This document shows positions 10,958-56,867 of a stretch of DNA of 64,000 nucleotides, piece by piece. How positions within the stretch are numbered: the stretch's first letter is position 1; every line of letters begins with the position of its first letter. The notes under the pieces were generated by a model. That model worked only from the letters and a program-made list of their open reading frames with translations, had not been told where the DNA came from and ran no database searches. This DNA is from a virus, in IMG/VR virus record IMGVR_UViG_3300034418_007971, positions 7,489 through 71,488 of that record; one strand, written 5' to 3'. Position numbers and translations under genes: made by a program.

Positions 10958-11200
10958 ATGATAAGATTGACAGAAGACCAGTTAGTTGAAATGATACAAC
11001 AGATTATAACTGAAAAGAAGAAAAAAAAGAAAAAGAAAAATACTTTATGTGCTAGAGGAAAATCAGCAGCTAAGGCTAAATATGATGTATATCCATCAGC
11101 CTACGCCAATGGTTACGCTGTTCAAGTTTGTAAAGGTACTAAACCTGGTTTAGATGGTAAAAAAAGATGTTCAGGAAAATATTGTTCGGGTAAAAAATAA
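10958..11200 (+). CDS. Small basic Cys-containing protein with N-terminal LTE tag
   Basis: MIRLTEDQL...IITE, poly-Lys, 'YPSAYANG' motif seen in phage basic proteins. Confidence 0.7.
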   Translation: MIRLTEDQLVEMIQQIITEKKKKKKKKNTLCARGKSAAKAKYDVYPSAYANGYAVQVCKGTKPGLDGKKRCSGKYCSGKK

Positions 11201-11229
11201 ACCCTATATTTGTAACAAACTTCCTGAAA

Positions 11230-11403
11230 ATGAATCAAGTTAATTACTACACATATCAACTTTTTAAAGAAGATAGACTAATAGCGGAGACTGAAGCAGC
11301 CACATTTGATAGAGCAATCGATTATTTTTTCGATACTCACCCTAAGGCTTACAGCGACTCAACTTATTCTTTTAAAAAAGTTAAAATGTCTCACGAACGT
11401 TAA
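11230..11403 (+). CDS. Small hypothetical protein (57 aa, not in ORF track)
   Basis: MNQVNYYTYQLFKEDRLIAETEAATFDRAIDYFFDTHPKAYSDSTYSFKKVKMSHER, preceded by TATATTTG at 11205-11212. Confidence 0.6.
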   Translation: MNQVNYYTYQLFKEDRLIAETEAATFDRAIDYFFDTHPKAYSDSTYSFKKVKMSHER

Positions 11404-11669
11404 TACTCCTCTATAAGTATTACCAAGTCCGTAGTACCCTTTATAACTCTATGAAAGGTTTCTTTCGGTATATCAAAAGTCACACCCTTTTTTAAAGGTA
11501 TAGGTAATTTATTATCCATCTGAAAATACCAATCGGTATCTTCGAGAACTTCTACTAAACGATTCTCCTTATCTCTATGCCAAACGAGTTCTTTCTCAGG
11601 AATATCTTGAGAAAAAACTCGTTTGAATTTATTAGATGATATATTTTCTTGTGAGTATATCATCACCAA
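11400..11669 (-). CDS. Small cupin-like protein
   Basis: 'LVWHRDKENR...W.FQMD...IPKETFHRVIKG' has cupin His spacing. Confidence 0.65.
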   Translation of the reverse strand: MVMIYSQENISSNKFKRVFSQDIPEKELVWHRDKENRLVEVLEDTDWYFQMDNKLPIPLKKGVTFDIPKETFHRVIKGTTDLVILIEEY

Positions 11670-12574
11670 AATCTACCTGAAACATTTTTACCGAAATCTT
11701 TATGGGCTCTACACGCCCAATACCCCGCCTTTGTCTTATCTTTTTTCTTTGCACACTGATGTCGAGCCGCAAATGACTTTCTTGCATCAGGGTCATTCCA
11801 CTTAGCGGTCATTGTAGGTGAGCCATAACTAACTTTCTTTATTTTACCTGTTTTAGGATTTCTAACGTACACATACCACTTTTTAGAACCACCTGATTTA
11901 GGTTTATTAAGAGACACTTCTTTACCTTTATATTCGGCCTCATTTAAAGTTTCATATTCAAAAGGGAAATCTAACGCCACTGTTTTACCACTTGTTAATT
12001 TTACAAAAGTACCCGCATCAGAATTTAAAATCTCCTCATCAAAATTATTAAATCTATATCCTTCTTTATATAGTTCTCTAGCCTCATTAATAAGGTCAAA
12101 GTATTTTTCACTACCATGTCTAAATGCGTTATCTGTAATAGATAAATTATTATCAAAGTGATATTGTAGTTCTTCAGAGATTTGTATTTTATTTAATATA
12201 GACTTATTAATACTTTCTCTAATTATATCTTTTATATACATAGATTCATTCTTTTTTTTCTTTTTATAGTTTTTAACTTTAATACGAGTAGGTTTTTTAC
12301 CTTTGGTATCTTTTGAACGTCCTTTTTCTTTTTCCCTTTTTCTTCTACAAGCAGAATCTTTAGCTGATTGAGACATTTTACCAGCAACACCTGCCGCTCT
12401 ACATACAGGATAACCTCCTTTATCACTATCACTTCTACCACAAGAAGGGTGACCACCTCCTTTTTTCTTTTTACAGATATTAACCCATGGACCTTTAGGT
12501 TGTTTTGAACCCTTCTTTTTTTTCTTTTTACCAAACCATACGGCTAAATCTTCTGATAAAATATACTTATCCAT
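11663..12574 (-). CDS. Basic multidomain virion-associated protein
   Basis: Lys-rich, Cys-containing N- and C-terminal modules ('KSFAARHQC...AGYWACR'); IRE/LNE sites; late motif upstream. Confidence 0.65.
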   Translation of the reverse strand: MDKYILSEDLAVWFGKKKKKKGSKQPKGPWVNICKKKKGGGHPSCGRSDSDKGGYPVCRAAGVAGKMSQSAKDSACRRKREKEKGRSKDTKGKKPTRIKVKNYKKKKKNESMYIKDIIRESINKSILNKIQISEELQYHFDNNLSITDNAFRHGSEKYFDLINEARELYKEGYRFNNFDEEILNSDAGTFVKLTSGKTVALDFPFEYETLNEAEYKGKEVSLNKPKSGGSKKWYVYVRNPKTGKIKKVSYGSPTMTAKWNDPDARKSFAARHQCAKKKDKTKAGYWACRAHKDFGKNVSGRFW

Positions 12575-12622
12575 TTGACTTTATGTTACTTTTTTATAAA
12601 TATTAGGTAAAACTCATTTATC

Positions 12623-13061: not shown

Positions 13062-13093
13062 AAAAGGGAGACCGAAGTCTCCCTTTTCTTTTT
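13061..13093. terminator. Bidirectional intrinsic terminator
   Basis: AAAAAGGGAGAC-CGAA-GTCTCCCTTTT between convergent genes; terminates the MCP transcript. Confidence 0.85.
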
Positions 13094-13110
13094 ATGTTTA
13101 AGATATAATA

Positions 13111-14895
13111 TTATCTTAACTCTCTTAGGTCGAATGTTCTAACACCATCAACTGTAATCTTACCGTAGAAACGGTTGTTCACCATCTTCTTAGCGTATCT
13201 TGTCATGATACCCTTGATTGGTGTAAAGTTGAATGGGTTGTACATTGTTGGAGTCAACTGTAGAGGTACGTATGGAGCGTATACATATCCTGTGTCAAGT
13301 AATGATGAACCCTTGTGTCCCAACAATACTGTGTTTGGTGGGAAGTATGGGTCACGGTAAACTTGATATCTACCTGATAATGTACCAACTCTTTCGATAC
13401 CCATGTTGTAGTTGTCCTGGTCAGGAGCCGCGTTTGAAACGTGGAAGTACTCAAGGTCATCGAAGATTGCTGAAATCTCTGAAGATACAACAATCCAGTT
13501 AGCACCACCTCTTAGAGTTGATTTATGGATTTGTGCAGAAATCTGATTGATTGCAGTAATCAATGTCTGATTCCAATCCTTTTGGTTGTAGTTGACAGAA
13601 CCGTTAGATACTCTCTTCCAACCGTTGTAGTCCCATCTTAATGACCAAGCTGCACCTTTTCTTAAGTCTCTTAAAATCTCACGGTCAATCTCTGCAGCTA
13701 CCTGCTCTGACAACAATGCTGTCAATTCAGCTTCCGCGTCGATGTTGTGGAATGCAGAGACGTCTTGTGCGAGTTCTGGTGACCACTGAGCTCTTAACTT
13801 TCTTTCTGTAACAGAAACAGTAACAGCTTCTAAGTCGAATGAAACTTCACCGATAGCGTCTTCAAATTCTAATGTCTCATAAACTCTGTATGAACCAACG
13901 AAGGTATCTCCTGATGCAATTGTTGAACCTGTGTATCCGTCTAATGACTGTGTTCCAATCTCAACTGGAGTTGAGAAATCAACCTCCAAGTAGATTTTAC
14001 CTTCAACATCACATACATTGTCGTACTTTCCGCCAGGACCAGGGTAAGAACCACTATAGAAAGTAGTCTGTTGCTCGTTACCATAGTTAACGATACCCTT
14101 ACCGTACTTCTGAGTTACAACTCTAAAGTTATAATAAGTGTCAGTAGCGCCGGTTTTGTAAGTTTCTAATGATGCTAAGAAGTCCTCAGTATCCATTTCT
14201 TGTCCGTCAGGACCTATTAATTTACTAGCACCTGCTGATGAGAATCCTGTCATCATAAAGATTAATGACCTTACGTTTGCACTTGCTGCAGTACCTGTAC
14301 CACCAGACGCGTAACTTAAAGCAACATCTAGTGTAGTTGCGGTTAAAACACCGTTGTTCCATCTAACAGGAACTAATGTTGGTGTTTGCTCTGCGTAAGC
14401 ACCCTTCGAGTAATCGAACAACCCAGCTGGGTCTGAATTTGGTGTACTACCTTCGTAGAAACGGTCATATAAGTTAGTTGAATTTGTGTAACCTGAATCT
14501 GTTGTTGATGGACCGTTTGGTGCTCCGAATGGAGGAATGTGAGTTCCATCAGCGTTTCTGTTCTGAATCTTTGGAACAAAGTAGAACAACTTACCGATTG
14601 GTAGGTTCATAGCTTGAACTGAAACGATGTCGTTAGCCAATAACTTAGAGAAAACTCTTCTTACGATTGGGAAAACAACTGTTTCGAAAGAACCTGAACT
14701 GTCAGATGCCGCCGCTTCGTTTATCAAATATGATGCTTGGTTCTCATATAACTGAGCCATATTTTCTTTAGTGTGGCCTTTAAGACCATCGAGGAACCCT
14801 AATTTGTCCCACTTGTTAATTGTGTCCTCCTTGATAACCTTAAGGTGCTTAAGACCGATGTTACCAACTAGACCTGATTCTAATAATGCTCCCAT
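13111..14895 (-). CDS. Major capsid protein (T4 gp23-like)
   Basis: PIVRRVF, VSVQAM..P.G..F, RKLRAQWSPELAQD..AFH.IDAEAEL, EIDREI, YAPYVPL, F.P..GIMTRY. Confidence 0.97.
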   Translation of the reverse strand: MGALLESGLVGNIGLKHLKVIKEDTINKWDKLGFLDGLKGHTKENMAQLYENQASYLINEAAASDSSGSFETVVFPIVRRVFSKLLANDIVSVQAMNLPIGKLFYFVPKIQNRNADGTHIPPFGAPNGPSTTDSGYTNSTNLYDRFYEGSTPNSDPAGLFDYSKGAYAEQTPTLVPVRWNNGVLTATTLDVALSYASGGTGTAASANVRSLIFMMTGFSSAGASKLIGPDGQEMDTEDFLASLETYKTGATDTYYNFRVVTQKYGKGIVNYGNEQQTTFYSGSYPGPGGKYDNVCDVEGKIYLEVDFSTPVEIGTQSLDGYTGSTIASGDTFVGSYRVYETLEFEDAIGEVSFDLEAVTVSVTERKLRAQWSPELAQDVSAFHNIDAEAELTALLSEQVAAEIDREILRDLRKGAAWSLRWDYNGWKRVSNGSVNYNQKDWNQTLITAINQISAQIHKSTLRGGANWIVVSSEISAIFDDLEYFHVSNAAPDQDNYNMGIERVGTLSGRYQVYRDPYFPPNTVLLGHKGSSLLDTGYVYAPYVPLQLTPTMYNPFNFTPIKGIMTRYAKKMVNNRFYGKITVDGVRTFDLRELR

Positions 14896-14922: not shown

Positions 14923-16314
14923 TTATTTTAATTTACTCATTAAATCTCTCATTCTTAAGAACTGAGGATTTTCATAAGTTTTACTTTCGATAAGATTGTT
15001 TGCTGAACCTTTAGTTGGAGTTTTAGTAACTTTAGATTGTACTGATTCAGTAACAACGTTAGTTTCTTTTCCACCTAAATCTTCTTTAACTGTCTTATAT
15101 AAAGATTTTGATTCTTTAAGAGTCTCGACACCATCGAAACGTCTTAAAATATTTATTTTCTCTTGCTTCGTAGTAGAATGCTCAGTGAATAAACGAGTAG
15201 CGTAAGCTAAATTAGAGTTGAAAACAGCCACTTCGTTAAGCTTCTCTTTGAAAACATTAAGTGCCTTACGGTACTCTTCATTCTTTTCTCTAAGTTGTTT
15301 AACTTCTGCTTTTAATTCTTCATTTTCTCTTACCGCGGGTCTTAATCTACCCTTAGCATAAGTTCTCACCTCTTCAGGTGCAGATTTAGCGTTTGGGTAC
15401 TTTCGTAAAGACGCATTAGTTCTAGCAGTTTCAGTGGTTTCACCTTCGTTACTTTCGTAATCTCTGTGTGACTTAGACTCATCGCCTTTGTTCCCACCGT
15501 AATCACCTTCGTTAGTTTCGTAATCTCTGTGTGACTTAGACTCATCGCCTTTGTTCCCACCGTAATCACCTTCGTTAGTTTCGTAATCTCTGTGTGACCT
15601 AGACTCATCGCCTTTGTTCCCACCGTAATCACCTTCACTCATTTCTTCTTCGTCAGCTTCTTCTTCACCAATCTCGATTTCATATACCACTTCTTCTTCT
15701 TCTTCCATGTGGTCTTCTTCTGTGTACTCACCTTCATATGCTTCTTCTTCTGATTCACCTAACTGAATAACGTATTCAGCATCGGTCTCTTCGTCTGATA
15801 AATGAACGTCACCACCGTCTTGCTTTACAATGATACCGTCTTCTTCACCCATAGCTTTAAATACCTTTAGTATTTCGTCATCAGAAGCTGCGGTTAAATC
15901 GAGAGGTAAAAGAACCTCTTCTTCATCATCAACTTCCAAGTCGTCACCAGGTAAATCGGTCATTAACATTTCCTCATCACCCAAGTCTAACTCTTCGTCG
16001 TTATCAGATTCCATATCGTCACCCATATCAAGACCTAAGTCTTCAAGAGCGTCTTCCATGTCACCTTCTGCGTCATCAACTTCAACCTCATCTTCAACGT
16101 CAATTTCTTCCTGTTCGGACATTTCAACATTTTCTTCTTCAGTTTCTGTTTCAGACATTTCAACCTCTTCTTCACTAAGAGATTCTTTTACTAATTCACT
16201 GATTTCTTCCTTCATAGTAGAAGCAAGTATTCCTTTTGCATTATTAGTTATGGCTTCTTGTAGATTTTCCATCTGCAATAAAGCTTCTTCAACTAGGTTT
16301 TTTTTGTCTGCCAT
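14923..16314 (-). CDS. Prohead core scaffolding protein
   Basis: Very acidic coiled-coil protein between the protease and MCP. Start set at MADKK, downstream of the late motif at 16351. Confidence 0.8.
   Translation of the reverse strand: MADKKNLVEEALLQMENLQEAITNNAKGILASTMKEEISELVKESLSEEEVEMSETETEEENVEMSEQEEIDVEDEVEVDDAEGDMEDALEDLGLDMGDDMESDNDEELDLGDEEMLMTDLPGDDLEVDDEEEVLLPLDLTAASDDEILKVFKAMGEEDGIIVKQDGGDVHLSDEETDAEYVIQLGESEEEAYEGEYTEEDHMEEEEEVVYEIEIGEEEADEEEMSEGDYGGNKGDESRSHRDYETNEGDYGGNKGDESKSHRDYETNEGDYGGNKGDESKSHRDYESNEGETTETARTNASLRKYPNAKSAPEEVRTYAKGRLRPAVRENEELKAEVKQLREKNEEYRKALNVFKEKLNEVAVFNSNLAYATRLFTEHSTTKQEKINILRRFDGVETLKESKSLYKTVKEDLGGKETNVVTESVQSKVTKTPTKGSANNLIESKTYENPQFLRMRDLMSKLK
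15440..15636 (-). repeat. 63-nt tandem repeat x3 (EGDYGGNKGDESKSHRDYETN)
   Basis: CACCTTC recurs at 15441, 15504, 15567 and 15630; units are near-identical. Confidence 0.95.
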
Positions 16315-16396
16315 ATTATTTTTTTGCAAAAAAGTTTATTATAGTTATCATATAAATATGTTAAATATGAAAAAAGTGTTTTTTTAATAACTTTAA

Positions 16397-16677: not shown

Positions 16678-17400
16678 TTAATAACCTAAATAATCGGAAA
16701 GTCTTTTCATTAAGTCAACACTTTTACCTAAACCACCATCAATCTTTGGTTCTTGTGACCTTAACTGAGTCTCTTCCTCTAAACTTTCTTCATACTTACC
16801 CTTATCATTTTTATCTAAGAATAGATATGCACCTGGTGTAGATGGAGATGAAACTAAATCAAAACAGATTAATTCAAAATCGTCTTGTACTTCATTTCTT
16901 TCACCTTTCTTTACTAATGAGCCAACACCACGAGAAGAAACACCCATAGTGACTCCTTGTCTCATTAAATTAGCCGCTTGGTCACCTGGACACGAAACTA
17001 CACCCTCTGTATGAAATCCAGGTGATGTCAATAATTTAATCTTTCCCATAAGTGTGTTACCTTCCCACCATACGTCTGTGATTAAGTGTGAGACACGGTC
17101 CAAATCTATCAAAGATGATTCAGGGTGGTTAAGTTCAGATATTGATAATCCTTTTTCGATTGCTTTTTTATAAACGTCAGCTTCTCTACGTAAAATCTTT
17201 TCAGGATACACTCTACCGTTTCTATTGGGGGTATCGTATTTTTGTAACGTCGCGTAAAACTCAAATGGTTTTGAATGGTCTAATTGACCATAAGACTCTT
17301 TTATAACTTGTGAATTACGGCTATCGTTAGGATTTACAAATCCGGCATCCCACTCTACTAAGATACCTTTACCTGAATCGTTTGGTCCTAAAATCTTCAT
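16678..17400 (-). CDS. Prohead maturation protease (T4 gp21-like)
   Basis: NRNGRVYP, ELNHP, VSH, GVSSRGVGS, FDLVSSPSTPGAY. Confidence 0.95.
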   Translation of the reverse strand: MKILGPNDSGKGILVEWDAGFVNPNDSRNSQVIKESYGQLDHSKPFEFYATLQKYDTPNRNGRVYPEKILRREADVYKKAIEKGLSISELNHPESSLIDLDRVSHLITDVWWEGNTLMGKIKLLTSPGFHTEGVVSCPGDQAANLMRQGVTMGVSSRGVGSLVKKGERNEVQDDFELICFDLVSSPSTPGAYLFLDKNDKGKYEESLEEETQLRSQEPKIDGGLGKSVDLMKRLSDYLGY

Positions 17401-17962: not shown

Positions 17963-18148
17963 ATGCTAATTATTAAGGTGAAAAATAAGAATATAGAGGC
18001 GGCTCTTAAAAACTACAAATATAAAGTTTACAAGACTAAGCAACTTCAGAACCTTAATAAAAATAAGGAGTACACAAAGGATTCAGTGGAAAAAAGAGAA
18101 AAAATGAAAAAAGCAATTTATGTGAATAAGAAGAGAAACGACCTTTAA
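17963..18148 (+). CDS. rpsU: Phage-encoded ribosomal protein bS21
   Basis: MLIIKV...NIEAALK.YK.K....QL...YTKDSV.KR....KAIY matches Bacteroidota bS21. Lies opposite the head genes, as in described bS21 phages. Confidence 0.85.
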   Translation: MLIIKVKNKNIEAALKNYKYKVYKTKQLQNLNKNKEYTKDSVEKREKMKKAIYVNKKRNDL

Positions 18149-19171: not shown

Positions 19172-21052
19172 TTAGTCATTTAGAAGTGAATTCAACTTTT
19201 TTTCTATTTCACCTAAAGACTGTCTACCTTTAGATAAGTCTAATATACTTTTACCTTTTATTAAGTCGTCCTCGACTAATAAATCTAAGTCTTTATTTCT
19301 TACTAGTCTTTCGGTTGGAGTTTCTTCGGGCGCAGTGTCTCCCCCTCCTTCATCACCACCTAAATCACCACCTAAATCACCACCTAAATCACCACCTAAG
19401 TCACCACCTAAGTCACCACCTAAGTCACCACCTAAGTCACCACCTAAATCACCTGTACCTGAATCAGTTGTTTCATCACCTAATGGGTCACCTCCTTCAC
19501 CTGGTTTATTACCATATAGTTTATCTATATTTGCGAATACACCAGTTTTACTAATAACTTCGGATGTCTTTTCAAGTTCGGCAGCAACCGCTTTTTCGAT
19601 TCTTTGTTGTTGTAAGTCTAATTTAATTTCCTCGTCACTAAAACCAAGTATGTGCTTCTTAGCCCAAGATGAGGAAACGGGTAAGATACCAGTTCCTGGG
19701 TCAGTAACAGCATCTCTATATAATTGAATTTTTTGTTGCCATTGCTCAACTTTGAGTAAGTCCGCTTGTGTAGAAGGATTAGTAAGACCTAAAGTAAAAT
19801 TACCTAATTCATCTTCAAAACCTAAAAGGTAAAGGTGTATAATTGCAATTTTATTTAGTTCTTGAATCATCGACTTTTGAATTCTGTTTATAGTTCTAGC
19901 AAATCTTATATCCTGTAATGATAAGTTTTTACCGTCACCAACAACCTCTTCAAATCCTAAGAATGCTTTGGGTACTCTTAGAGATGTTAAAAGTTTCTTC
20001 TGAATGTATTCTATATCTGCAATTTCAGATAGGTTTTGTGCACCTGGCAATGTATCTATAGGGTTAGGTGCGTTAGGGTCTCTAACGGGAATAAAATAGT
20101 CTTGGTCGACCGCCATTTGATTGTATCTTAAATCGACATTTCCGTTACTCGAATCTACAACTTGGTCTCTCTTAAATTTGTTTGCCACTCTATTTACGTA
20201 TGGTTCAACATCCTTGTCGTCCATATTTCCAACAAATACTTTAAATACTCTTCTTTCAGGTGCTCGCGATGTTCTATAGATTAACATGGCATCTTCTGAT
20301 AGTATTAACTGTTTCCAAATTCTTCTACCTTTTTCCAACATAGATGTCCCGTATGGTAGTTTTCTATCGTCACCTAATAATCTAAAGTGAGCAATCTCCC
20401 AAGTATTAAATTCCATGTCTTTATTTTGCCATAAAAACTTTAGCGCATCATTCTCCGTATTTGTTGAGTTACGTTCAGGCTTCATTTTCATACCTCTCTC
20501 CTGTCTATTAATCTCAATATTAGGTAGTTGTTGTGCACCCATAATACCTTTTTCAGGGTCTAATTTCAGATAAACAAAATTGTCACCATACTTACATGTA
20601 TTTCTTGTCCACATAGGTAAGTTAGTATTAATATCTAATCTGTTATTAAACAAATCACCTAAAACAGATTTAATTCTTTTACTTTCCGAATATATCTGTA
20701 ACATATAACCGTCTTCATCGGGAGTAGTAGATTCTTCTGAGTATATATCTAAGGCGGCGGAAATTTCAGGAGTATACTCCATACTTTCATAATCATAAAA
20801 GGAGGCTAAACGAGTTGGTTCATAATAAACTGCTTGTGTATAAAGATTGTTTTCAATCTTTTGCCATTGTTGACCTAAATAAAGGGTTTGTTGTGCTTGT
20901 AACTTCTCTCTCTCATACTCTTGTTTATTAGTTGTCTTGAGTATTTGTTTTTTGTCGAAGTTATATACGGGTGGTTGTTGGTCCAAAGTTGAATCGGGAC
21001 CAAATACTCTTGTTAACCTTTGCCAAATCGTATAATTATTCTTTTCCGCCAT
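19172..21052 (-). CDS. Portal protein (T4 gp20-like)
   Basis: EDAMLIYRTSRAPERRVF, DYFIPVR, IDTLPGAQNL, DIEY.QKKL..SLRVP. Confidence 0.95.
   Translation of the reverse strand: MAEKNNYTIWQRLTRVFGPDSTLDQQPPVYNFDKKQILKTTNKQEYEREKLQAQQTLYLGQQWQKIENNLYTQAVYYEPTRLASFYDYESMEYTPEISAALDIYSEESTTPDEDGYMLQIYSESKRIKSVLGDLFNNRLDINTNLPMWTRNTCKYGDNFVYLKLDPEKGIMGAQQLPNIEINRQERGMKMKPERNSTNTENDALKFLWQNKDMEFNTWEIAHFRLLGDDRKLPYGTSMLEKGRRIWKQLILSEDAMLIYRTSRAPERRVFKVFVGNMDDKDVEPYVNRVANKFKRDQVVDSSNGNVDLRYNQMAVDQDYFIPVRDPNAPNPIDTLPGAQNLSEIADIEYIQKKLLTSLRVPKAFLGFEEVVGDGKNLSLQDIRFARTINRIQKSMIQELNKIAIIHLYLLGFEDELGNFTLGLTNPSTQADLLKVEQWQQKIQLYRDAVTDPGTGILPVSSSWAKKHILGFSDEEIKLDLQQQRIEKAVAAELEKTSEVISKTGVFANIDKLYGNKPGEGGDPLGDETTDSGTGDLGGDLGGDLGGDLGGDLGGDLGGDLGGDLGGDEGGGDTAPEETPTERLVRNKDLDLLVEDDLIKGKSILDLSKGRQSLGEIEKKLNSLLND
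19353..19453 (-). repeat. 12-nt tandem repeat x8 encoding (GGDL)n in the portal C-tail
   Basis: TCACCACCTAAR repeated 8 times. Confidence 0.95.
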
Positions 21053-45200: not shown

Positions 45201-46484
45201 TTACTTAATCACATAATCGTTTATATCAATAGAATTAAGTACCTTCTCGACTTCTTTTATCGTCGCTTCTTCACTTTCATTTATAGTTTTTATCTGAACT
45301 GTTGCTCTTTCGGTCAATTCTGCGTTAGCCTCTTTTACCAATACGTCATCAGGAACAGCTAACTGTTCTTCAGTTAATGTCGGTTTAGGTCCCCATTGTT
45401 CTTCCCACTTTATATCATAATACTGAGTTAGTCTATATAATAGTTCATCTCCCATAAATAATACACCACCTATTCTAATAGACCATTTTAATGTAAAAAT
45501 AGATAACCTAGATAGGTTAAGTAATAATATTGTAATACCTCTTAAACCCATTGACATTAAGGTTGCTGCATTTTTAGCGATAGTAGTATATCTAACTGAT
45601 AATTTATACAATTCATCTTGTTGTTCGGCAATTTCATTAACCACCTTTGTTTCGGCAGCATTTAAAGGAAGTCCATCATATACCTTCTTAAGTAAATTAC
45701 CAATTGCACCTTCACCAGCTTCTTTGATTAGTCTTTTTACTCCCGGAATTCTACTTATTAACACCCCACCAGGAATAGCCATAAAAATCGTAGCTAATGC
45801 GGCTGTTGTAGTATCACCTTCTCTGTAATACATATATGCATCTGCAGCTTCTAACACACCAGCAAGAACAATACCTGCCACACCACCTGTAGCTATACTA
45901 ACAATTATAGCAGCTATCGGTAAAAAATAATGATGAAAACCCTCTAAATCATATGTTTGTCTATCTTCCCATTCTTTCAAATCTTTTTCATAAATGTCCC
46001 ATACATCTTGTTTATATTTACCTTTTAAAAGTATGAATGGAGGTATTCCTGATGAGGAGGGGTTTTCGGTTTCCCTTTTATTAAGGTCGAGATAAGGTTT
46101 GATAATATTTTTGTAATATTTTTCATATCTTGGAGAATCATATGTTATGAACCAGTAACCATTTGGGTTTTTGTGATTTCCATTTCCATCTAAGTAGTAA
46201 CCCTCTCCTCGTTTTGGTGTGGGTTCTGTAGGTTTTGTATTTCCTGTGTATCTCATAGCCTCCGATTCATATTGCGTTTTCACCCAATCATCTATTCCCA
46301 TTTTATCTATATCATTTTTTATGGGATTATATCGGTTATTTGCAAAATGGTCTTGATAACCATGTTGTGAATAATCAATATTAGACAAATCATAGTCATT
46401 TGTCTGTTCTAACAGAGTTTTAGACCTATCATAGTTCATAAGTCTATTAACTTCGTTTAAACTAATTATTAATTTATTATCCAT
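45201..46484 (-). CDS. Tagged late protein with Gly/Ala-rich membrane-inserting helices
   Basis: LNEVNRLM...LLEQ; FLPIAAIIVSIATGGVAGIVLAGV; late motif at 46500. Confidence 0.7.
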   Translation of the reverse strand: MDNKLIISLNEVNRLMNYDRSKTLLEQTNDYDLSNIDYSQHGYQDHFANNRYNPIKNDIDKMGIDDWVKTQYESEAMRYTGNTKPTEPTPKRGEGYYLDGNGNHKNPNGYWFITYDSPRYEKYYKNIIKPYLDLNKRETENPSSSGIPPFILLKGKYKQDVWDIYEKDLKEWEDRQTYDLEGFHHYFLPIAAIIVSIATGGVAGIVLAGVLEAADAYMYYREGDTTTAALATIFMAIPGGVLISRIPGVKRLIKEAGEGAIGNLLKKVYDGLPLNAAETKVVNEIAEQQDELYKLSVRYTTIAKNAATLMSMGLRGITILLLNLSRLSIFTLKWSIRIGGVLFMGDELLYRLTQYYDIKWEEQWGPKPTLTEEQLAVPDDVLVKEANAELTERATVQIKTINESEEATIKEVEKVLNSIDINDYVIK

Positions 46485-46543: not shown

Positions 46544-46777
46544 ATGGATAAATCAAATACACATTGGGATTTTTATAATTCAATTGAGAATAAAGTATTA
46601 CTTAGTAGTAATACGACAGATGAGTTTTTACTAAGAATGAAAAAGGTTGATTTATTCTTTGGTGATTTTGAACGTATAGTTGATGATATTAGTGTAACTA
46701 TTAAAAATATTGACGTTAATCAATACATTATCAAAGAAACTATTTTTGAAAAGATTAAATCTTATTTTTTACGTTAA
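46544..46777 (+). CDS. Hypothetical protein
   Basis: 77 aa after a host-type promoter. Confidence 0.6.
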   Translation: MDKSNTHWDFYNSIENKVLLSSNTTDEFLLRMKKVDLFFGDFERIVDDISVTIKNIDVNQYIIKETIFEKIKSYFLR

Positions 46778-47470
46778 AGTGTTAGCTTTACCTCTACTAA
46801 TACCTGATTCCCATTTACTATTTTGGTCAATCATGTTTCCCTTACCTCTATTAACATTATCTGTCCACACGGTTATGGTTATTTGATTGGCTGGTCCGCG
46901 AGTTAATCCTGTTTCCCATGTAGTAACACCCGCATTTGTGGATGATGAGTCACCTCCTGCATCTCCACCTGTGTCTCCACCACCTTCTTCTTGTTCTGTT
47001 ACTTCTTCATCCGCCGGAAATCCTTCTTCACCATATATTTCAGGATGTTGCAATCCGTACTTCTTAAGTAATTCACCTGCAACTGCATTTGCTTCATCTT
47101 CTATAGGACCACCAACATTTTGTATTTTACCTTTCAATTCACCTTCTTCATTTTGATGATGATGTACTAACTCATGAGCCACTGACCTCATAATGTCTTG
47201 TAACGCCCTTTCTTTGGTATAGACGGTGACCTCCGCATTTTCTATATCTGCATTTTCACCATCTTCGTACCTATAAACTGCTGTTGTATCTACTTTAGAC
47301 TTGTCTTCCGTGTAGTCAATATTAACCTCATTTTCTATACCTAACTCTTTTACAACTAAATCAACAAAATTTTCCAAATGTCTTTTATCCTCTGAAGGAA
47401 ATAAAGATTCACCTTCAGTAATGTTCATAAGGGTTTTAATACGATTAATATTTTCGTGTAATAGACTCAT
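46769..47470 (-). CDS. HExxH zinc metalloprotease-like late protein
   Basis: MRSVAHELVHHHQ...EDEANA.AG; N-terminal LHENINRIKTLM tag. Confidence 0.7.
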   Translation of the reverse strand: MSLLHENINRIKTLMNITEGESLFPSEDKRHLENFVDLVVKELGIENEVNIDYTEDKSKVDTTAVYRYEDGENADIENAEVTVYTKERALQDIMRSVAHELVHHHQNEEGELKGKIQNVGGPIEDEANAVAGELLKKYGLQHPEIYGEEGFPADEEVTEQEEGGGDTGGDAGGDSSSTNAGVTTWETGLTRGPANQITITVWTDNVNRGKGNMIDQNSKWESGISRGKANTLT

Positions 47471-49078: not shown

Positions 49079-49105
49079 AAAAAGAGGTCTTATGACCTCT
49101 TTTTA
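49077..49105. terminator. Bidirectional terminator
   Basis: AAAAAGAGGTC-TTAT-GACCTCTTTTT. Confidence 0.8.
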
Positions 49106-49624
49106 TTTTAAAAGTTTTTTTATCCGTTCTATATTTTCCATAAATTTCTCAGGATTATCTTTTGCCCAATCTTTAACAAAATCAGGTAAACCTGAGTTAA
49201 CTATTTCTTCATTAACGTTAACTTTAACCTTTTTTGATTCAGTCATAACGTCAGTTACCATAACATCACCAAAACTTATATGTAATCTTGATTTAAGTTG
49301 TGGTGTCGGTGCAACAAAAGTTATTTCAAACCCGTTATCTTTAGCCCATTGTTTAGCTATCTCAGGGTCTAAAATATCTTGTCTTTTTTGTGGATATCTT
49401 TCAGACCATTTTTTAGGTGAAGAAATTACTGAAGCTATTTTATAAGATGGGGTCACAATAATTACCATTTTTTGTACATCCAATCCGAAAAAACTTTCTT
49501 TTCTAAAAATAACTTTACCAAGTAACTTTGTGATAAACTCTTCAAAGTTACTTTTTTCTCTTTCTTTTTTATCTGGTAGATTAAAAGAAGCCGATTCGTT
49601 ATTTATGTGTTTGTTTTTCCCCAT
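49103..49624 (-). CDS. Hypothetical late protein
   Basis: Start MGKNK, just after the late motif at 49628; C-terminal 'ENIERIKKLLK' tag-like motif. Confidence 0.65.
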   Translation of the reverse strand: MGKNKHINNESASFNLPDKKEREKSNFEEFITKLLGKVIFRKESFFGLDVQKMVIIVTPSYKIASVISSPKKWSERYPQKRQDILDPEIAKQWAKDNGFEITFVAPTPQLKSRLHISFGDVMVTDVMTESKKVKVNVNEEIVNSGLPDFVKDWAKDNPEKFMENIERIKKLLK

Positions 49625-49638
49625 ATCTATAAATAGTA

Positions 49639-49941
49639 TCATCTATAATCTGCGTCAGGTAATCTACCCTCATAAATTAAATAATATTCATTTAAAAAAG
49701 ACATCATGTCTTCTTCATCGATAAAAAAATCTTCATCATCAAAATCAAATCCAAAATCGTCACTATCCTCAAATAAATCAGACGGAATAAAATGACTACC
49801 ATAACCAAAATCATTCAGATGGTGAAATTCTATGGTATCTATTCTAACCATATCCTCATCGTCCTGTCTAAGTCTAAACTCTACTTCAACAACATTGTTG
49901 TCTTTATTGATAAAGTTTGATATTATTTCTATAACTTCCAT
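49639..49941 (-). CDS. Acidic hypothetical protein
   Basis: 100-aa ORF. Confidence 0.65.
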   Translation of the reverse strand: MEVIEIISNFINKDNNVVEVEFRLRQDDEDMVRIDTIEFHHLNDFGYGSHFIPSDLFEDSDDFGFDFDDEDFFIDEEDMMSFLNEYYLIYEGRLPDADYR

Positions 49942-51110: not shown

Positions 51111-51124
51111 GGGGTTTTGTTTTT
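51090..51124. terminator. Bidirectional terminator
   Basis: AAAACCCCTC-TTAAACT-GAGGGGTTTT. Confidence 0.75.
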
Positions 51125-52139
51125 ATAGGAATTTTTTAAACCTATTAAACATTTCTGTTATTCGTTCTTTATCTTCAATAAATGATTCTTTTAAATCTTC
51201 GTCTATTTCTTCATACATAGAACCTGAACCACATTCTAAACATTCACCTTCCCTCATTTCGCTACCACACTGTTCACAGGTTTCTTTTTCCATAACTTCA
51301 CCTTCATACATAGAACCTGAACCACATTCTAAACATTCACCTTCCCTCATTTCGCTACCACACTGTTCACAGGTTTCTTTCTCATCTAAATGACTTTTTA
51401 TATGGTCATCATACTCGTCGGGAGTTACTTTACCATCTCCATCTTCGTCAAAATGTTTATGTAATTCGTTTTTTGAAATTGTTCCGTTATCATTTTCATC
51501 CGCACCTTCATATAAATCGGTGTCCATAGCACCTTCTGAGTCAAATTGGTAAGCCGGTACCTCATCATCATAATCTGCAGTTATACTACCATCAAACATA
51601 GACATTATTGAGTCAATATCCATTCCGTATGAATCTTCTGAGTATGTCATGTCTTCGTCACCGAATTGGTCTGGACCTCCTGATTCAAAGTCATAAGCAG
51701 CTTCTACATCTGATACATCCATATCATCGGCAGCATATTCTTTAACTTCTTCACTAACACTTGCGTGGTATGCATCTAAAGCTTCTTCTGCGTCCTTTTC
51801 ACTTTTAAAACCATCTCTGAAAATTCCACCTTTTTTGTTATTCATGATTACCCACTCATCACCTTCTTTCTTAATACACCCTGAACCACCTTCAGATTTT
51901 GCACATCCTTTACCTTTCTGTTTGCTGACTACAGACTCATTAACCAAATGATTTCTGTATTGACCCACTTCACCTCTGTTGTTCACAGTAATACCTTGTG
52001 AGTCTGATGGACCTTCGTCCTGTAATAATGGTTGTGGACCTGATGGAATATTACCGGTAGCATATCCGTTGTAGAATGCTGAGTGTTGTTGAAGGATTGA
52101 ATTTTTCTCTTCGTCTGACATTGTAGAATAACCTCTCAT
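51123..52139 (-). CDS. Acidic late protein with EF-hand-like pair and duplicated Zn ribbons
   Basis: DENDNGTISKNE and DEDGDGKVTPDE; CEQCG..M.EGECLECG twice; start MRGYS after the late motif at 52153. Confidence 0.7.
   Translation of the reverse strand: MRGYSTMSDEEKNSILQQHSAFYNGYATGNIPSGPQPLLQDEGPSDSQGITVNNRGEVGQYRNHLVNESVVSKQKGKGCAKSEGGSGCIKKEGDEWVIMNNKKGGIFRDGFKSEKDAEEALDAYHASVSEEVKEYAADDMDVSDVEAAYDFESGGPDQFGDEDMTYSEDSYGMDIDSIMSMFDGSITADYDDEVPAYQFDSEGAMDTDLYEGADENDNGTISKNELHKHFDEDGDGKVTPDEYDDHIKSHLDEKETCEQCGSEMREGECLECGSGSMYEGEVMEKETCEQCGSEMREGECLECGSGSMYEEIDEDLKESFIEDKERITEMFNRFKKFL
51209..51380 (-). repeat. Perfect 79-nt direct repeat x2 (93-nt period)
   Basis: 51209-51287 is identical to 51302-51380; encodes the Zn ribbon. 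Confidence 0.9.
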
Positions 52140-52204
52140 GACTGTTTTTTTATATAAATATGTTTTAGTTACCAAATAATTTGACATTCTAAATAAACAT
52201 TAAT

Positions 52205-52510: not shown

Positions 52511-52924
52511 ATGACCGTACACGAAATCAGTAACTACTTCAATCAGTGCCCAAACATGGAAAAGGCTTATAAAGAGCACAAAAACATTGGTCGGTTGATT
52601 CGTAGTAACGTATTTAAGCACACTAGCAATCGTCACTGGGATAATATGGACTTACTTTACAAAATCACATATATTAAGGTCAGTCGTAATGATGACTTGT
52701 TGGTCAACATCAAAGTCTCAGGTACTATGGGTCGTTCTTCTTGGCGTAGTAAGGAAAATACTTGTGTTACTGATTACGTTAAAATTAATCACTCAACCTC
52801 TCGTCGTCGTAATGACGATATTCGTCGGGCAGTTCGAGACGATGTTCAAAAGTTTTTCCGTCTTTTCGGTATGGATACTTACAAGATTGAGATTGGTAAA
52901 GTTAAAGTGTGTAAGGAACTTTAA
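52511..52924 (+). CDS. Basic hypothetical early protein
   Basis: 137 aa; CGT-rich codon usage. Confidence 0.7.
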   Translation: MTVHEISNYFNQCPNMEKAYKEHKNIGRLIRSNVFKHTSNRHWDNMDLLYKITYIKVSRNDDLLVNIKVSGTMGRSSWRSKENTCVTDYVKINHSTSRRRNDDIRRAVRDDVQKFFRLFGMDTYKIEIGKVKVCKEL

Positions 52925-55482
52925 AGTTTCATCATAAAGTACCTCAGTGCTAATGGACCTAATTTCCTTAATTCTCGATTAATATTATTAGTACTTAGTT
53001 CTTGTTCCTTATCCTGTAGGTTTCTAAACGCCGCAGATATCATAACCTGTTGTGACTTCTCCGCAAGTTGTAACAGGTTTTCTTTTTCATCTTCATCTTC
53101 AATCTGTTGGTAACTATCCTGTAGTTCTTGTATCTTTAAGTATTTTTCCAAGAAGTCTCTACCACTCCAAGTAAAATCAGGCGATTGCATCATATTAACA
53201 ATACCACTGTCTCTTAACGCTATTAAGAAATTAAAGATGTGACCACCATCATCGGATTGTAAAATCGGTAATAATGGTTTCATATCGTCAATAAAATTTT
53301 CATTAATAGTTGTAATAGATTCAGGGTATGTATCACCTATAGTACCCTCATTCTTATCAGGGTAATCTGAATTTTTTAATATATGTCTCAGTAAGTTCAA
53401 AGAACCAATTCTTTTGTCGTTAGTGTCTACAACTGTCCATGGAACTTCACCTTTAGCTAAATCAAAAACTTTTTCTTTATACTCAGTGTAATCATCCCAT
53501 TTCTCTAAAGACTTTTCATCGTTAGGTGAGAACTTCCAATATTTTAGTGGAGATGACTTCCTTAAGTCAAATCTTTTTTCTTGAGTTCTGGGAGTTATTG
53601 ACAACCAAAATTTATATAAATCCACACCTTTACTAACCAATGACTTCTCAAAATCGTTTACAGTGTTCATAAACTCTTCATATTCCCCTTCTTCACTATA
53701 ACCCATAACAGGTTCCACAATTCCTCTATTATACCAACTACGGTCAAAGAATGTGATTTTACCGGGTTCTATATGTTGTGAATATCTACCAAACCAATCT
53801 TTTCTCTCTTCGGGAGTTGGAATCCCTAATGCAACCACATTGTAGTATTTTGGGTCTAAGTATTTTGTAATGGTTCTAATAGTTGAACCCTTACCTGCGG
53901 TGTCTCTACCTTCAAAAACTACTGCAATAGATTTACCAGTTTCTTTAATATGTTCTTGTAGTTTTAATAACTCAACCTGTAAGGGTAACAATTCTTTTTT
54001 AAATTGTTTTCTACCAATCGAAGATACTTCAGGTTCTTCACCCCCATATACCAACTCGTCTTCAACACTATAATCGTCATCTTCAAATTCTGAGGATTGT
54101 CTTTTACCAATAGAGTTAATTAATATTTCTAAGTATTCTCTGGCGTTCGTCCTTGGGTTACCTGACTTTAGAAATTTTCTTTCTAAGTTTCTTATCACTA
54201 ATTCGTTTATATCCTCGTCTTTTAATTGTGATAATAAATCTTCCATTTCTGAGGGGTCTATGTCGTTACTTCTAAGAACGTCTGATAAGTCTTTTTTAGA
54301 TTCATCCATTTGACCGGGTAAATCAATCAATCCTTTTTCTTTCATAATTCTGGCCAATCTGTCCCCATATAAATCAATAACTCTTTTTAAGAACAGGTCA
54401 GGATTTTTTCTAATATATTGAATTATATCGAATCTAATATTTTTAGCATAACTACCAAATAAATCAGATATTCTATCATCTTTTCGTGAGGAATCTTTTC
54501 TATAATGTAAGTTTTTAATTTCTTTATTAGTTACCTTTGGAAAAGTAATTCTATTGCAGAGTCCCCCTACTTTGTCTTGTGGTATTGAAATAGTATAATT
54601 ACCCTTACCTGATTTGTAATTTTCAATAATTCTATTTATTAGACTGTCAGTGTCAATAACACAATATGAAATATCATCCTCATTTAAAACCGAAAAAACC
54701 CAATTAAGTGACTTAGAGGGGTCTTCTCCAACTACAAAAGAAGTTTTTAACATTAAAATTTTATACTCATCAAACTCACTACCCATATTCATTAAATCTA
54801 TAGGTCTTTTTAAATCATCTATCTCATACCCATCTTCAATAAGTTCTATCTTAGCCGCTTCAAAACCGTTTGATAACGAACCTAAGTCAAATCTTTCTCC
54901 TGGTTGTGTTAATTTAACCGAATAATAGTCTTCACCTATTTTTATATCTTCTTTCCTTTGTGATATTATTGGCTTTCCTCCTGTTAATCCCGCCAATAAA
55001 CCTTCAAAATTAAAACCTCTACCATCTTTATCTCTTTTAAAAGATATGAAATACTCGTAAAATCTAATTTTATCTACTAATCTTTTTAGTGTACTATTTA
55101 AATCAATTCCGTCATTTAAGTTAAAAAATGGAATCCCCTCACTTCTAAGAATTCTTTTTATTACGTTACTTGATGACATCTTTGTTTTAGGAATAGGTCC
55201 GATAGTCGACATTATTTTACTTAATGATGTGGATGTTGCACCAACCTCCTCTTTTATTATGGATTCGTCATCTTTTACCCAAACATCGGTATCACCAATA
55301 AGATTCATAAATCGGTTATTATCCCAGTCAACATAATATATGGGCTCAACACTCCATGGGTCACTACCAACACCTTTTACTGTTCCTTTAGTACCTACAG
55401 TAACCGGTGAGTATGGGTCACTCATAACGATTAGAATGATTCTATCACCAACTTCAAGTTTAGGATTGATTTTTGAATTCAT
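52921..55482 (-). CDS. ppk2: Multidomain protein containing polyphosphate kinase 2 (PPK2)
   Basis: VFEGRDTAGKG, FFDRSWYNR..VEPVMG, K.WL.I, WKFSP.D, PW.VV..NDKR. Also an N-terminal SH3/DUF4314-like domain, a PD-(D/E)xK-like middle region and a C-terminal 'LRDSGIVNM' domain. Confidence 0.85.
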   Translation of the reverse strand: MNSKINPKLEVGDRIILIVMSDPYSPVTVGTKGTVKGVGSDPWSVEPIYYVDWDNNRFMNLIGDTDVWVKDDESIIKEEVGATSTSLSKIMSTIGPIPKTKMSSSNVIKRILRSEGIPFFNLNDGIDLNSTLKRLVDKIRFYEYFISFKRDKDGRGFNFEGLLAGLTGGKPIISQRKEDIKIGEDYYSVKLTQPGERFDLGSLSNGFEAAKIELIEDGYEIDDLKRPIDLMNMGSEFDEYKILMLKTSFVVGEDPSKSLNWVFSVLNEDDISYCVIDTDSLINRIIENYKSGKGNYTISIPQDKVGGLCNRITFPKVTNKEIKNLHYRKDSSRKDDRISDLFGSYAKNIRFDIIQYIRKNPDLFLKRVIDLYGDRLARIMKEKGLIDLPGQMDESKKDLSDVLRSNDIDPSEMEDLLSQLKDEDINELVIRNLERKFLKSGNPRTNAREYLEILINSIGKRQSSEFEDDDYSVEDELVYGGEEPEVSSIGRKQFKKELLPLQVELLKLQEHIKETGKSIAVVFEGRDTAGKGSTIRTITKYLDPKYYNVVALGIPTPEERKDWFGRYSQHIEPGKITFFDRSWYNRGIVEPVMGYSEEGEYEEFMNTVNDFEKSLVSKGVDLYKFWLSITPRTQEKRFDLRKSSPLKYWKFSPNDEKSLEKWDDYTEYKEKVFDLAKGEVPWTVVDTNDKRIGSLNLLRHILKNSDYPDKNEGTIGDTYPESITTINENFIDDMKPLLPILQSDDGGHIFNFLIALRDSGIVNMMQSPDFTWSGRDFLEKYLKIQELQDSYQQIEDEDEKENLLQLAEKSQQVMISAAFRNLQDKEQELSTNNINRELRKLGPLALRYFMMKL

Positions 55483-55547
55483 AAAAAAATACTATTTACC
55501 ATAAATATACTAACAATCCTAATATTTATTGTTGTAATATTAGTTTA

Positions 55548-56174
55548 ATGAAAGTTATCTTAACGGAAAGTCAATATAAGAAATTATTAAAGGAACAATA
55601 CAAGGATAGTGTAAGTAATACCCTATCAAAAATTAGTGATTTTACTTTTAATGTAATTAAAGATGCTTCCAATCAACTAAAGTTCGATTTTAGATTCTTA
55701 TTAACTTATGGTGCAGGAATCGGAGCTATTCTACAATCAGTTTTTGACTATCTACAGGGTACGTTTACTAATTTAGATACTAACCAGATTGCAGGTCTTA
55801 CTGTTATGGCAATAGCAGTTGTATTTTATGAAAATAAAGACTTAAAAGAATTATTAAATAAAATGAGAGGTAATGAATTGTCTAACGCAATTTCATATAC
55901 CGAAAAAATTAAAAATAAATTTTCACATTTATTAAAAGTTTTAGGATTATCAATCCATAGAACATCTAATATAGTATCATATAGCTTCTTAGTACCTGTT
56001 TTGTCTATCCTTATTGATGTTGTGACTAAACATGGTATTGACTCAGAACAATTTGAAATGTTGTTAGAGGCTTTATCTACCTCAGCATTAATTGCAATAC
56101 CAGGTGTTGCGATAAGAGATGTTTTAATTAAAGCGGCTGAGATGGTCGAGTCTAAAAAAATCAGTCAAACGTAA
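55548..56174 (+). CDS. Membrane protein with N-terminal LTESQ tag
   Basis: MKVILTESQYKKLLKEQ plus several hydrophobic helices; late motif at 55523. Confidence 0.7.
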   Translation: MKVILTESQYKKLLKEQYKDSVSNTLSKISDFTFNVIKDASNQLKFDFRFLLTYGAGIGAILQSVFDYLQGTFTNLDTNQIAGLTVMAIAVVFYENKDLKELLNKMRGNELSNAISYTEKIKNKFSHLLKVLGLSIHRTSNIVSYSFLVPVLSILIDVVTKHGIDSEQFEMLLEALSTSALIAIPGVAIRDVLIKAAEMVESKKISQT

Positions 56175-56469
56175 AACTACTATCAACCAGATAGTAATGG
56201 ACATCCATTGCCCAATACATAAATTTTACTTTTCCTTTCTCTCTTTCTTTACCAATTTTTTGTGATTTTTCTTTATCACCCATAACTACACCTACAATTT
56301 TTTTACCTTTAGGAAGGTCTAAGTGTTTGTGAGTATTAATTGATATGGGGGTTGGTTTTTCAAAATCCTCTAATCTTTTGAGTAGTTGTTTCTTACTTCC
56401 ACTGTAAGGTAGTCTACGGTTTTTACAGATGTTTTTTAATTCTACAAGTGATAGTTTATCGTAATCCAT
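56161..56469 (-). CDS. SAP-domain DNA-binding protein
   Basis: LSLVELKNICKNRRLPYSGSKKQLLKRL. Confidence 0.75.
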   Translation of the reverse strand: MDYDKLSLVELKNICKNRRLPYSGSKKQLLKRLEDFEKPTPISINTHKHLDLPKGKKIVGVVMGDKEKSQKIGKEREKGKVKFMYWAMDVHYYLVDSSFTFD

Positions 56470-56492
56470 AAAGCTAATTTAAGGATTTAATA

Positions 56493-56867
56493 TTACAAAT
56501 CCAAATCCTTTCTTAACTGTTCTAAATCACTTTTTAACTTTTCATCTCTCTCTAATGAGTCCGCCGCCTTTTCTAAATCCCTGTCTTTTTTGTTTTTAGC
56601 AGAGTAATCCGTTCCTGTTGAATATGCTTTATTGTGTGAACCTCCACTATCTAAACCTTTCTCTAAACGAATTAATCTTTTATGTAATTCCTTTAAAGAT
56701 TTTTCTACATCAGACCAATCATTAATACTTTGGAGTATAATTGTATCTGATAAGAATTCAGGTAGGTCGTAATCAACAACGTCTGAGGTATTTCCGTATA
56801 AACCTTGCTCAGTAATTAAATTTTTAATCACTTTATTAAACTGAGTTTCTGTTAATTTAATCTTCAT
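56493..56867 (-). CDS. Hypothetical late protein with KIKLTETQ tag
   Basis: Late motif at 56872, only 4 nt from ATG. Confidence 0.7.
   Translation of the reverse strand: MKIKLTETQFNKVIKNLITEQGLYGNTSDVVDYDLPEFLSDTIILQSINDWSDVEKSLKELHKRLIRLEKGLDSGGSHNKAYSTGTDYSAKNKKDRDLEKAADSLERDEKLKSDLEQLRKDLDL

Follow-up and report, generated by a model that had tools for sequence, protein, structure and literature searches.

The internal proteins of phage T4 carry N-terminal targeting propeptides of 10-19 residues, and the T4 protease gp21 cleaves after L/I-X-E, as described in passages of PMC9026906. For example, in the internal protein IPIII, positions 4 and 7 serve for targeting, and positions 8 and 10 serve for processing (passages of PMC9026906 and PMC3012670). 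Reviewers of T4 suggest, in passages of both papers, that the capsid-targeting sequence (CTS) lets T4-like phages load varied proteins (PMC9026906, PMC3012670). In this study, we analysed a stretch of viral DNA of 64,000 nucleotides (the window; GC about 32%), which comprises bases 7489-71488 of the 71,488-base viral record IMGVR_UViG_3300034418_007971, and in which unrelated late genes begin with a few recurrent helical peptides (tags) ending in [ILV]-x-E. A sequence-only reading of the window by a model had proposed a tagged capsid-cargo system of about 18 late genes. We consider it reasonably likely that the tags are T4-style capsid-targeting propeptides in a much enlarged, multi-class version.

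The T4 CTS, known as the propeptides of IPI, IPII, IPIII and Alt that gp21 removes, and the window tags are alike in that a short N-terminal peptide ending in L/I-x-E stands on unrelated proteins, and in that the window encodes a protease of the gp21 family along with a gp22-like scaffold and a capsid protein of gp23 type. They differ in that the window phage has at least three tag classes compared with one CTS type in T4, tags of 14-29 residues compared with 10-19 in T4, at least nine tagged genes in 64 kb, and payloads that include a zincin-like enzyme and proteins with hydrophobic segments. The likeness drawn here is one of description, and our claim is that it may work like that of T4, not that it descends from it.

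Cut sites in the phiKZ group of phages have the motif S/A/G-x-E rather than L/I-x-E. The likeness of the giant phages phiKZ, 201phi2-1 and SPN3US to the window is that many of their head proteins are cut after Glu by a diverged gp21 homolog; the difference is that their propeptides are long, varied regions with several cut sites, according to passages of PMC9026906. Large packaged protein sets are ejected into the host by phages of this group, as stated in parts of three papers (PMC9026906, PMC7411985, PMC10052503). No shared short address peptide was reported for the phiKZ group in the literature passages and abstracts found.

Short terminal helices also place proteins inside a forming HK97-fold shell, as do the C-terminal docking peptides of scaffolds and proteases and the cargo-loading peptides of encapsulins; these peptides are C-terminal and are not removed. 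The window scaffold and protease likewise each end in a conserved short tail with DLM.[KR][LI], whereas the window tags are N-terminal and followed by a protease-type site, and the match between scaffold tail and tags is not significant in the window. Literature on shared tags in Bacteroidota phages was not found, and supplementary gene tables may hold relevant entries; a literature search with the tag motif strings returned unrelated papers only.

Nine Genes Share N-Terminal Tags of Three Classes

All of the peptides quoted in the sequence-only reading are present in the window at their positions, including the start at 52139. The class A tag (M..LTExQ....[IL][IL].E) stands on three window genes, the class B tag (E.NRIK.LM.[IL].E) on four, and the class C tag (DEEK..IL..H...YL.E) on two. 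Census profiles were built from relatives and then run back on the window's own 71.5-kb contig, where they recovered class A three times (31-34 bits), class B four times (33-39 bits) and class C twice (50-53 bits), and no further contig protein exceeded 10 bits in the scans with the three profiles. On the basis of this census, the strict tagged set comprises nine genes; the three recurrent classes were confirmed, and the figure of about 18 was an overcount. The shared N-terminal tags are real for these nine genes in three classes and are strongly replicated in relatives. The nine genes are listed below, where the late motif is TATTTATA.

10958..11200, plus strand: class A, 80 residues; tag residues 1-19, ending IITE; 34 bits
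55548..56174, plus strand: class A, 208 residues; tag MKVILTESQYKKLLKE, residues 1-16; 31 bits
56493..56867, minus strand: class A, 124 residues; tag residues 1-20, ending LITE; 33.6 bits; late motif at -12
43806..45146, minus strand: class B, 446 residues; tag residues 1-20, ending LLKE; 35 bits; late motif at -21
45201..46484, minus strand: class B, 427 residues; shortened variant tag (LNEVNRLMNYDRSKTLLE); 33.5 bits; late motif at -23
46769..47470, minus strand: class B, zincin-like, 233 residues; helix 2-14, predicted cut after ITE19
27891..28424, minus strand: class B, 177 residues; tag residues 1-20, ending GITE; 37 bits; late motif at -21
34187..35482, plus strand: class C, 431 residues; tag residues 1-29, ending YLKE; 49.8 bits; late motif at -26
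51123..52139, minus strand: class C, 338 residues, very acidic; 53 bits; start corrected to 52139

The payloads behind the tags span 80 to more than 500 residues, with opposite charges and different folds. In 10958..11200, the tag is followed by a poly-Lys run and then by a small basic Cys-rich domain (21 K+R, 6 D+E). Hydrophobic 19-mers lie at residues 142-160 and 171-189 of 55548..56174, at 334-352 of 43806..45146, and at 190-208 and 225-243 of 45201..46484, and it is on these three proteins that the earlier mention of membrane proteins among the payloads rests. No BLAST paralogy was found among the tagged genes, and the two pairs with E<0.01 among 80 proteins were both untagged. Because the tags differ at synonymous codon positions (TTG ACA GAA vs TTA ACG GAA), it is the peptide and not the RNA that is conserved. 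For 51123..52139, the start at 52139 (Met17 of the long open reading frame (ORF) 51123..52187) is the likelier one, since a copy of TATTTATA stands 21 nt upstream of it within the longer ORF; the C-terminal basic helix of this protein (EMFNRFKKFL) is conserved in three relatives.

The tag is kept in orthologs of 55548..56174 at 61% identity, in an ortholog of 56493..56867 (class A) and in the ortholog of 27891..28424 in G001 (L089; class B), and the shortened class B variant of 45201..46484 recurs in one relative (L096). The related-loci search found no relatives of the class B protein 43806..45146. A signal peptide of the Sec/lipoprotein type or of the type IX secretion system (T9SS) was rejected as the nature of the tags: none of the tagged proteins has a hydrophobic 19-mer within residues 1-30. 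The signal-peptide and CHU_C/PorP genes of the window are other genes than the tagged ones. The very basic Cys-rich proteins 10958-11200 (plus strand) and 11663-12574 (minus strand) have long poly-Lys runs (AAG/AAA tracts) directly after their leaders, and the length of these runs varies among relatives from 8 to 13 or more Lys.

The late motif TATTTATA occurs in 24 copies in the window, and the 17 copies within 60 nt upstream of a predicted start sit 11-47 nt before it; the genes that bear it include the scaffold, the protease, a core-region gene and the gene of ribosomal protein bS21. It behaves as a late promoter-like motif, which we take to be reminiscent of the T4 late promoter. The sequence-only reading held that most tagged genes follow this motif, and the counts agree: six of the nine strict tagged genes have a copy of their own compared with 12 of the 71 other genes (Fisher p=0.003). 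The tagged genes 10958 and 46769..47470 each lie downstream of a gene that bears it.

Could such a pattern arise without any shared function, from AT-rich composition (Lys/Ile/Asn/Glu-rich helical N-termini) or from old paralogy? The GC of about 32% fits such an origin, as does the high class B score of the M42-type peptidase 31196..32266, whose start is native to its family. Taken over all N-termini, the excess in similarity was likewise small: in an all-against-all local alignment of N-terminal 35-mers, 50 of 3,081 pairs scored at least 30, compared with a mean of 34 and a maximum of 48 pairs in 20 internal-window sets, the highest-scoring pairs being class A and class B genes. On the other side stands the recurrence of patterns, which exceeds both shuffled and internal controls. 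In residues 2-26 of 90 contig proteins, 17 four-residue gapped patterns were common to at least three N-termini, compared with a mean of 4.7 and a maximum of 11 for internal windows and a mean of 6.5 and a maximum of 15 for shuffled N-termini (30 draws each). The site [ILV]-x-E was present in residues 6-30 of 53% of the 90 proteins compared with 34 +/- 4.4% (maximum 44%) in 200 draws of internal 25-mers, and [ILVMF][ILV]-x-E was present in 21% of N-termini compared with 11.3 +/- 3.1% of internal 25-mers. The size, charge and fold of the payloads, the position of matches in relatives almost always at start codons, and the occurrence of one payload domain with different tags and without any also speak against this explanation, which we regard as very improbable.

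Tags as Exchangeable Modules in Relatives

Profiles from the window tags alone were scanned against five related records (78-270 kb, E<0.05 per record), which gave 41 matches, 38 of them at a Met (16 of class A, 13 of class B and 9 of class C). All 13 class B matches were directly after Met (12 at the frame start and one at a Met 179 residues in), 16 of the 19 class A matches were after the start Met, and nine of the nine class C matches were within seven residues of Met. As background, 9.9% of ORF positions lie at most four residues after any Met, and the binomial p values were 8e-14 for class B (13/13), 6e-14 for class A (16/19) and 3e-6 for class C (7/9 within four residues). The largest relative (270 kb) had 4-5 N-terminal matches per class with the window-derived profiles alone. 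Around the protease gene in 80 IMG/VR loci, all 24 class A matches outside the window (at least 10 bits) were at most 17 residues from the ORF start, and in some relatives an additional class A tagged gene of 126-132 residues sits immediately ahead of the protease gene, between it and the core genes.

With their first 30 residues cut away, the 47 tagged ORFs found in the window and its relatives grouped into 36 payload clusters (BLAST E<1e-3), which supports, at the sequence level, the proposal of a portable tag on diverse payloads; tag classes were not mixed within any payload cluster of this 47-ORF sample. Among 22 distinct N-termini of 10958 orthologs, the basic Cys-rich domain was retained while the leader changed: nine had a full class A tag, two were truncated, and in the other 11 the leader was short and of IIKKVLKE type, in most cases together with an additional domain in the middle. 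All 20 leaders ended in [ILV]-x-E.

Different tag classes were found, in different phages, on the domain of the zincin-like payload 46769..47470. This protein has a folded domain at residues 26-146 with HELVH at 99-103. The sequence-only reading named metalloproteases among the payloads; in this protein the HExxH motif is invariant and the match to a SprT-like zincin fold is weak, because the best match of the AlphaFold2 model in a Foldseek search against PDB, the SprT-like protease SPRTN, reached only E 3.7e-3. The model (mean pLDDT 61.7) has a separate tag helix at 2-14 and a fold from 26 to 146, and the pLDDT was below 50 at 16-21, the stretch that holds ITE/G.

Among 120 listed members of the close zincin family (327 found), 103 have the class B tag and the remaining 17 are shorter: 16 begin at the internal Met that immediately precedes the cut site, and one begins still further inside. 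A 90%-clustered database listed only such close relatives, and a 50%-clustered library revealed other architectures. A profile search of 1.84 billion representatives detected 2,920 proteins with the domain; among the 150 matches listed, the majority begin at profile positions 17-31, just behind the tag. In 40 sequences, the leaders of this domain were of class B (P0127), class A (P0142, P0159, P0253), a short IRKILKE-type (P0147, P0204, P0213) or another short type ending in LKE (P0129, P0130, P0132), and the domain was also found without a leader and with large C-terminal extensions (P0180 and similar). Since one zincin domain occurs with different tags or with none, tag and payload are separate modules that have been recombined in nature. 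This natural exchange lends indirect support to the idea that a tag alone might be enough to load a foreign protein.

Among cultured phages, Flavobacterium phage immuto has the nearest capsid protein, with 42% identity across 56% of the query. Immuto carries N-terminal tags of the kind MKKQILSEQF.RMQ.LAGIITE. In immuto (NC_055915; L001-L004), a further recurrent leader MKKSQLR.II..EL is found on unrelated proteins in four genes, and a second recurrent leader, MENFDLKKFLVENKLT.NS, is found in four or five genes; several such genes lie beside head genes. A C-terminal class-A-like peptide, V.VTESQLEKLLEKL.., ends frames of 48-49 residues in G001, G004 and G005 (L114, L105 and L106).

Cut-Site Signature and the Head Module

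In the 103 tagged zincin homologs, P3 was I, L or V in all 103 (I86, L16, V1), P1 was E in 102 and Q in one, P2 took eight different residues, and P1' was G in 89, S in 10 and others in 4. The invariant tag columns in an alignment of 65 zincin family members were L4, E6, I8, R10, I11 and E19, and the class A and C tags of relatives likewise end in [ILV]-x-E. Judged by these alignments, the tag end is under selection as [ILV]-x-E, which matches the L/I-X-E specificity of T4 gp21 as given in passages of PMC9026906. At the sequence level, the proposal that the tags end in the T4 gp21 site is supported, and the window encodes a gp21-family protease. The protease belongs to a T4-type head module (Gp23, Peptidase_S77, Portal_T4 and TerL by Pfam and PHROGs, and an acidic scaffold), which lies on the minus strand and has a bS21 gene on the opposite strand within it.

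13111..14895, minus strand: major capsid protein, Gp23 type (Pfam Gp23, E 6.5e-73)
14923..16329, minus strand: scaffold, acidic, gp22-like by position and composition
16678..17400, minus strand: prohead serine protease, gp21 family (Pfam Peptidase_S77, E 2.5e-22; phrog_207, E 6.6e-42)
17963..18148, plus strand: ribosomal protein bS21
19172..21052, minus strand: portal (Pfam Portal_T4, E 9.1e-78)
21096..22871, minus strand: large terminase (TerL)

By analogy with T4, the gp21-family protease 16678..17400 is presumed to be the tag-removing enzyme. The capsid protein has two candidate maturation sites, LYE51 and INE60 (then Ala), which are invariant in 31 aligned sequences; the alignment to mature T4 gp23 is weak (11 bits) and favours neither. 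The scaffold contains 16 [ILV]-x-E sites.

The cut-site signature bears on whether the tags are removed at all. They might target the prohead and then stay on, or leave some proteins only, in which case the payloads would remain tethered in the head, as decoration proteins or minor structural ones, instead of being injected. An Asp at position 10 leaves T4 IPIII packaged yet unprocessed, so targeting and cutting are separable (passages of PMC9026906). The tag-like helices at the C-termini of 49103..49642, 51123..52139, the scaffold and the protease, which have no obvious cut site after them, also fit retention. However, if no cleavage took place, it would be hard to account for P3 and P1 being conserved in 102 of 103 zincin tags, and likewise at the ends of class A and C tags; we think retention quite unlikely.

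The same signature has to be explained if the helices are docking or oligomerisation modules for a target outside the head interior, such as tail or baseplate assembly, a membrane-associated assembly site, or the phage's ClpB/ClpC-like ATPase and its UVR-motif (McsA-like) protein, with the terminal x-E as a helix cap and not a cut site. This explanation leaves open why there should be a near-invariant Glu with I/L/V two residues earlier and a free middle position, why the linker is disordered at that point, why a tagged gene is inserted beside the protease gene, and why the scaffold tail of immuto resembles tags. It gains from the position of the Clp-type AAA+ gene 29112..31133 and the UVR-motif gene 28491..28931, which adjoin a class B gene, from the hydrophobic segments in three tagged proteins, from the scatter of the tagged genes, not all of which lie within the head module, and from the still hypothetical binding partner of the tags in the head interior. 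We consider docking outside the head unlikely.

Scaffold and Protease Tails

The C-terminal tail of the scaffold, PQF[LM]RM[KR]DLM.K[IL]K, is almost invariant in 27 variants, and the tail of the protease, S[VIL]DLM[KR][KR]L[ST]DYL, hardly varies across 60 distinct ortholog C-termini; DLM.[KR][LI] is common to both. When the last 22 residues of the immuto scaffold were compared with 1,178 open frames of immuto, two N-terminal tags were the two best non-self matches, with scores of 49 and 42, whereas 30 shuffled queries reached 40 at most. A third lineage was the uncultured phage LR756508, whose scaffold ends in ...SRMQKLADIS: there, the tail peptide search matched itself only, a degenerate DNA pattern of the tail gave no more matches than a control, and a joint profile gave one weak match at an internal Met. 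The likeness of scaffold tail and tags thus reaches significance in immuto, and does not reach it in the window. There is at least one relative in which tags and scaffold tails seem to have changed in step.

Weaker Candidates and Neighbouring Genes

Beyond the strict nine, about six further tag candidates are weaker.

25443..26630, minus strand: acidic head-module protein, 395 residues; class-B-like motif at residues 17-24; 8.2 bits, the best non-tag match
49103..49642, minus strand: 179 residues; last 10 residues class-B-like (NIERIKKLLK); rank 5 of about 21,800 positions
22892..24190, minus strand: conserved acidic protein, 432 residues; leader of 10-15 residues ending in x-[KN]-E before a conserved IEYDGPERM
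24183..25046, minus strand: 287 residues; orthologs with class-A-like L[SN]ESQI..LY.KL..E at residues 22-40
32263..34104, minus strand: acidic protein, 613 residues, starting MKFITLLIEG; late motif at -15
42424..43806, minus strand: 460 residues, starting MNLLNEQ; within the late operon of the class B genes

Several of these had been counted as tagged. The KINRILEI of the gene starting at 26630 is present but is the conserved N-terminal motif of one orthologous family; this protein also has a class-C-like stretch, YFIISEEEK, near residue 310, both stretches are conserved in 24 orthologs, and its role may be that of a core or scaffold-type protein, not of cargo. The ENIERIKKLL of 49103 is likewise present but at the C-terminus, outside the strict N-terminal set, and is a candidate docking helix; a similar basic helix ends three proteins, namely 49103..49642, 51123..52139 and the product of one gene upstream of the window. 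We take these likenesses, and those of the protein 25443..26630, as leads. The genes starting at 24190, 25046, 34104 and 43806 do have a leader ending in x-E, but it is a short leader only and not a full tag. Two other candidates were rejected: the class-B-like start of the M42-type peptidase 31196..32266 belongs to a family match from residue 6, and polyphosphate kinase 2 (PPK2; 52921..55482, minus strand), which had been named as a payload, has a DUF4314 domain as its N-terminus. The latter is a fusion of 853 residues, with DUF4314 before the kinase, and a DUF4314-like stretch also stands before the zincin domain in one distant relative (P0147).

The bS21 phages of freshwater Bacteroidetes have the same gene layout, with bS21 inside the head module, as described in PMC9723584. 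The window bS21 gene 17963..18148 has its own TATTTATA copy 25 nt upstream, which fits the late bS21 expression reported for bS21 phages in the abstract of the same paper (PMC9723584). The PorP/SprF and CHU_C genes of the window suggest a Bacteroidota host, and the window is a piece of a giant phage genome, since related IMG/VR records are up to 270 kb, with an estimated completeness of 88%.

The PorP/SprF-type T9SS membrane protein (47495-48487, minus strand) has the late motif and heads the operon of the class B genes, and a nearby protein of 1,132 residues with a CHU_C sorting domain (38274-41672, plus strand) makes with it a set of phage-borne T9SS-related genes. The UVR-motif (McsA-like) gene 28491-28931 (minus strand) is divergent from the gene of a two-ring ClpB/ClpC-type AAA+ ATPase (29112-31133, plus strand), and this pair adjoins a class B tagged gene; the immuto annotation also has a McsA-like gene. 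The capsid protein 13111..14895 has 594 residues, of which the Pfam Gp23 model matches two stretches; the region from about residue 100 to about residue 340 has the look of an insertion specific to the lineage and differs from one relative to another. Within its acidic middle, the scaffold 14923..16329 repeats a unit of about 21 residues (NEGDYGGNKGDES.SHRDYE.) three times in tandem.

Proposed Mechanism and Its Meaning

In our working model of T4-style targeting, an amphipathic N-terminal helix of 14-29 residues would dock a late protein on the core of the prohead during assembly, or else on the inside of the capsid shell. The flexible linker after the helix would carry the [ILV]-x-E site, at which the phage's own gp21-type protease would cut during head maturation, and the payload would then be free inside the head and available to exit with the DNA. 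Such payloads in the window would be the small basic Cys-rich protein, the zincin-like protease, the proteins with hydrophobic segments and several acidic proteins. Docking, packaging, cleavage, and injection or delivery of the tagged proteins are what we infer by analogy with T4; the tags themselves, as far as genes and alignments tell, are N-terminal, portable, linked to the late promoter-like motif, selected at P3 and P1, and encoded alongside a gp21-family protease.

Several points weigh against this model. The [ILV]-x-E site is common by composition, being found in 34% of random internal 25-mers, and the gene starts are predictions and not mapped. The hydrophobic segments in three tagged proteins are unlike T4 internal proteins, some zincin relatives match from profile positions 3-9 far inside long proteins, and three of the 19 class A matches in relatives are at the C-terminal end of ORFs of 48-49 residues. 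On the window's own contig, the scaffold-tail query retrieved no tag (best non-self score 31, shuffled queries up to 40), nor did a profile of 27 scaffold-tail variants among the ORFs searched. The pattern R[ILMVN][KR][EDTQ][ILV]M, whose sole occurrences in 49,745 residues are three class B tags and the scaffold tail, was composed with these sequences already in view. Searches of the literature found no virion proteome, N-terminome or expression data for the phage or its relatives.

A broader idea can be put forward tentatively, with more doubt than belief on our part: that T4-like giant Bacteroidota phages may load dozens of fast-changing proteins into the capsid, for delivery with the DNA, by means of an address code. 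Its clip-off tags would be of several kinds that can replace one another, and some would have arisen as copies of docking helices in the phage's own scaffold and protease. If true, these phages would possess a programmable effector-delivery system of natural origin, on a scale well beyond the handful of internal proteins of T4, with a zincin protease, small basic DNA-binding proteins and membrane-inserting proteins among its cargo. Should the tags indeed load the head, a simple sequence rule, namely a start helix of a known class that ends in [ILV]-x-E, would foretell which proteins are injected by uncultured phages of lakes and seas, a large and abundant group; it is among these proteins that anti-defence and host-takeover functions are expected. 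The tags would then also be ready-made natural means of packaging foreign proteins in Bacteroidota phages, and the old T4 question of what the targeting peptide binds could be tested by comparing lineages.

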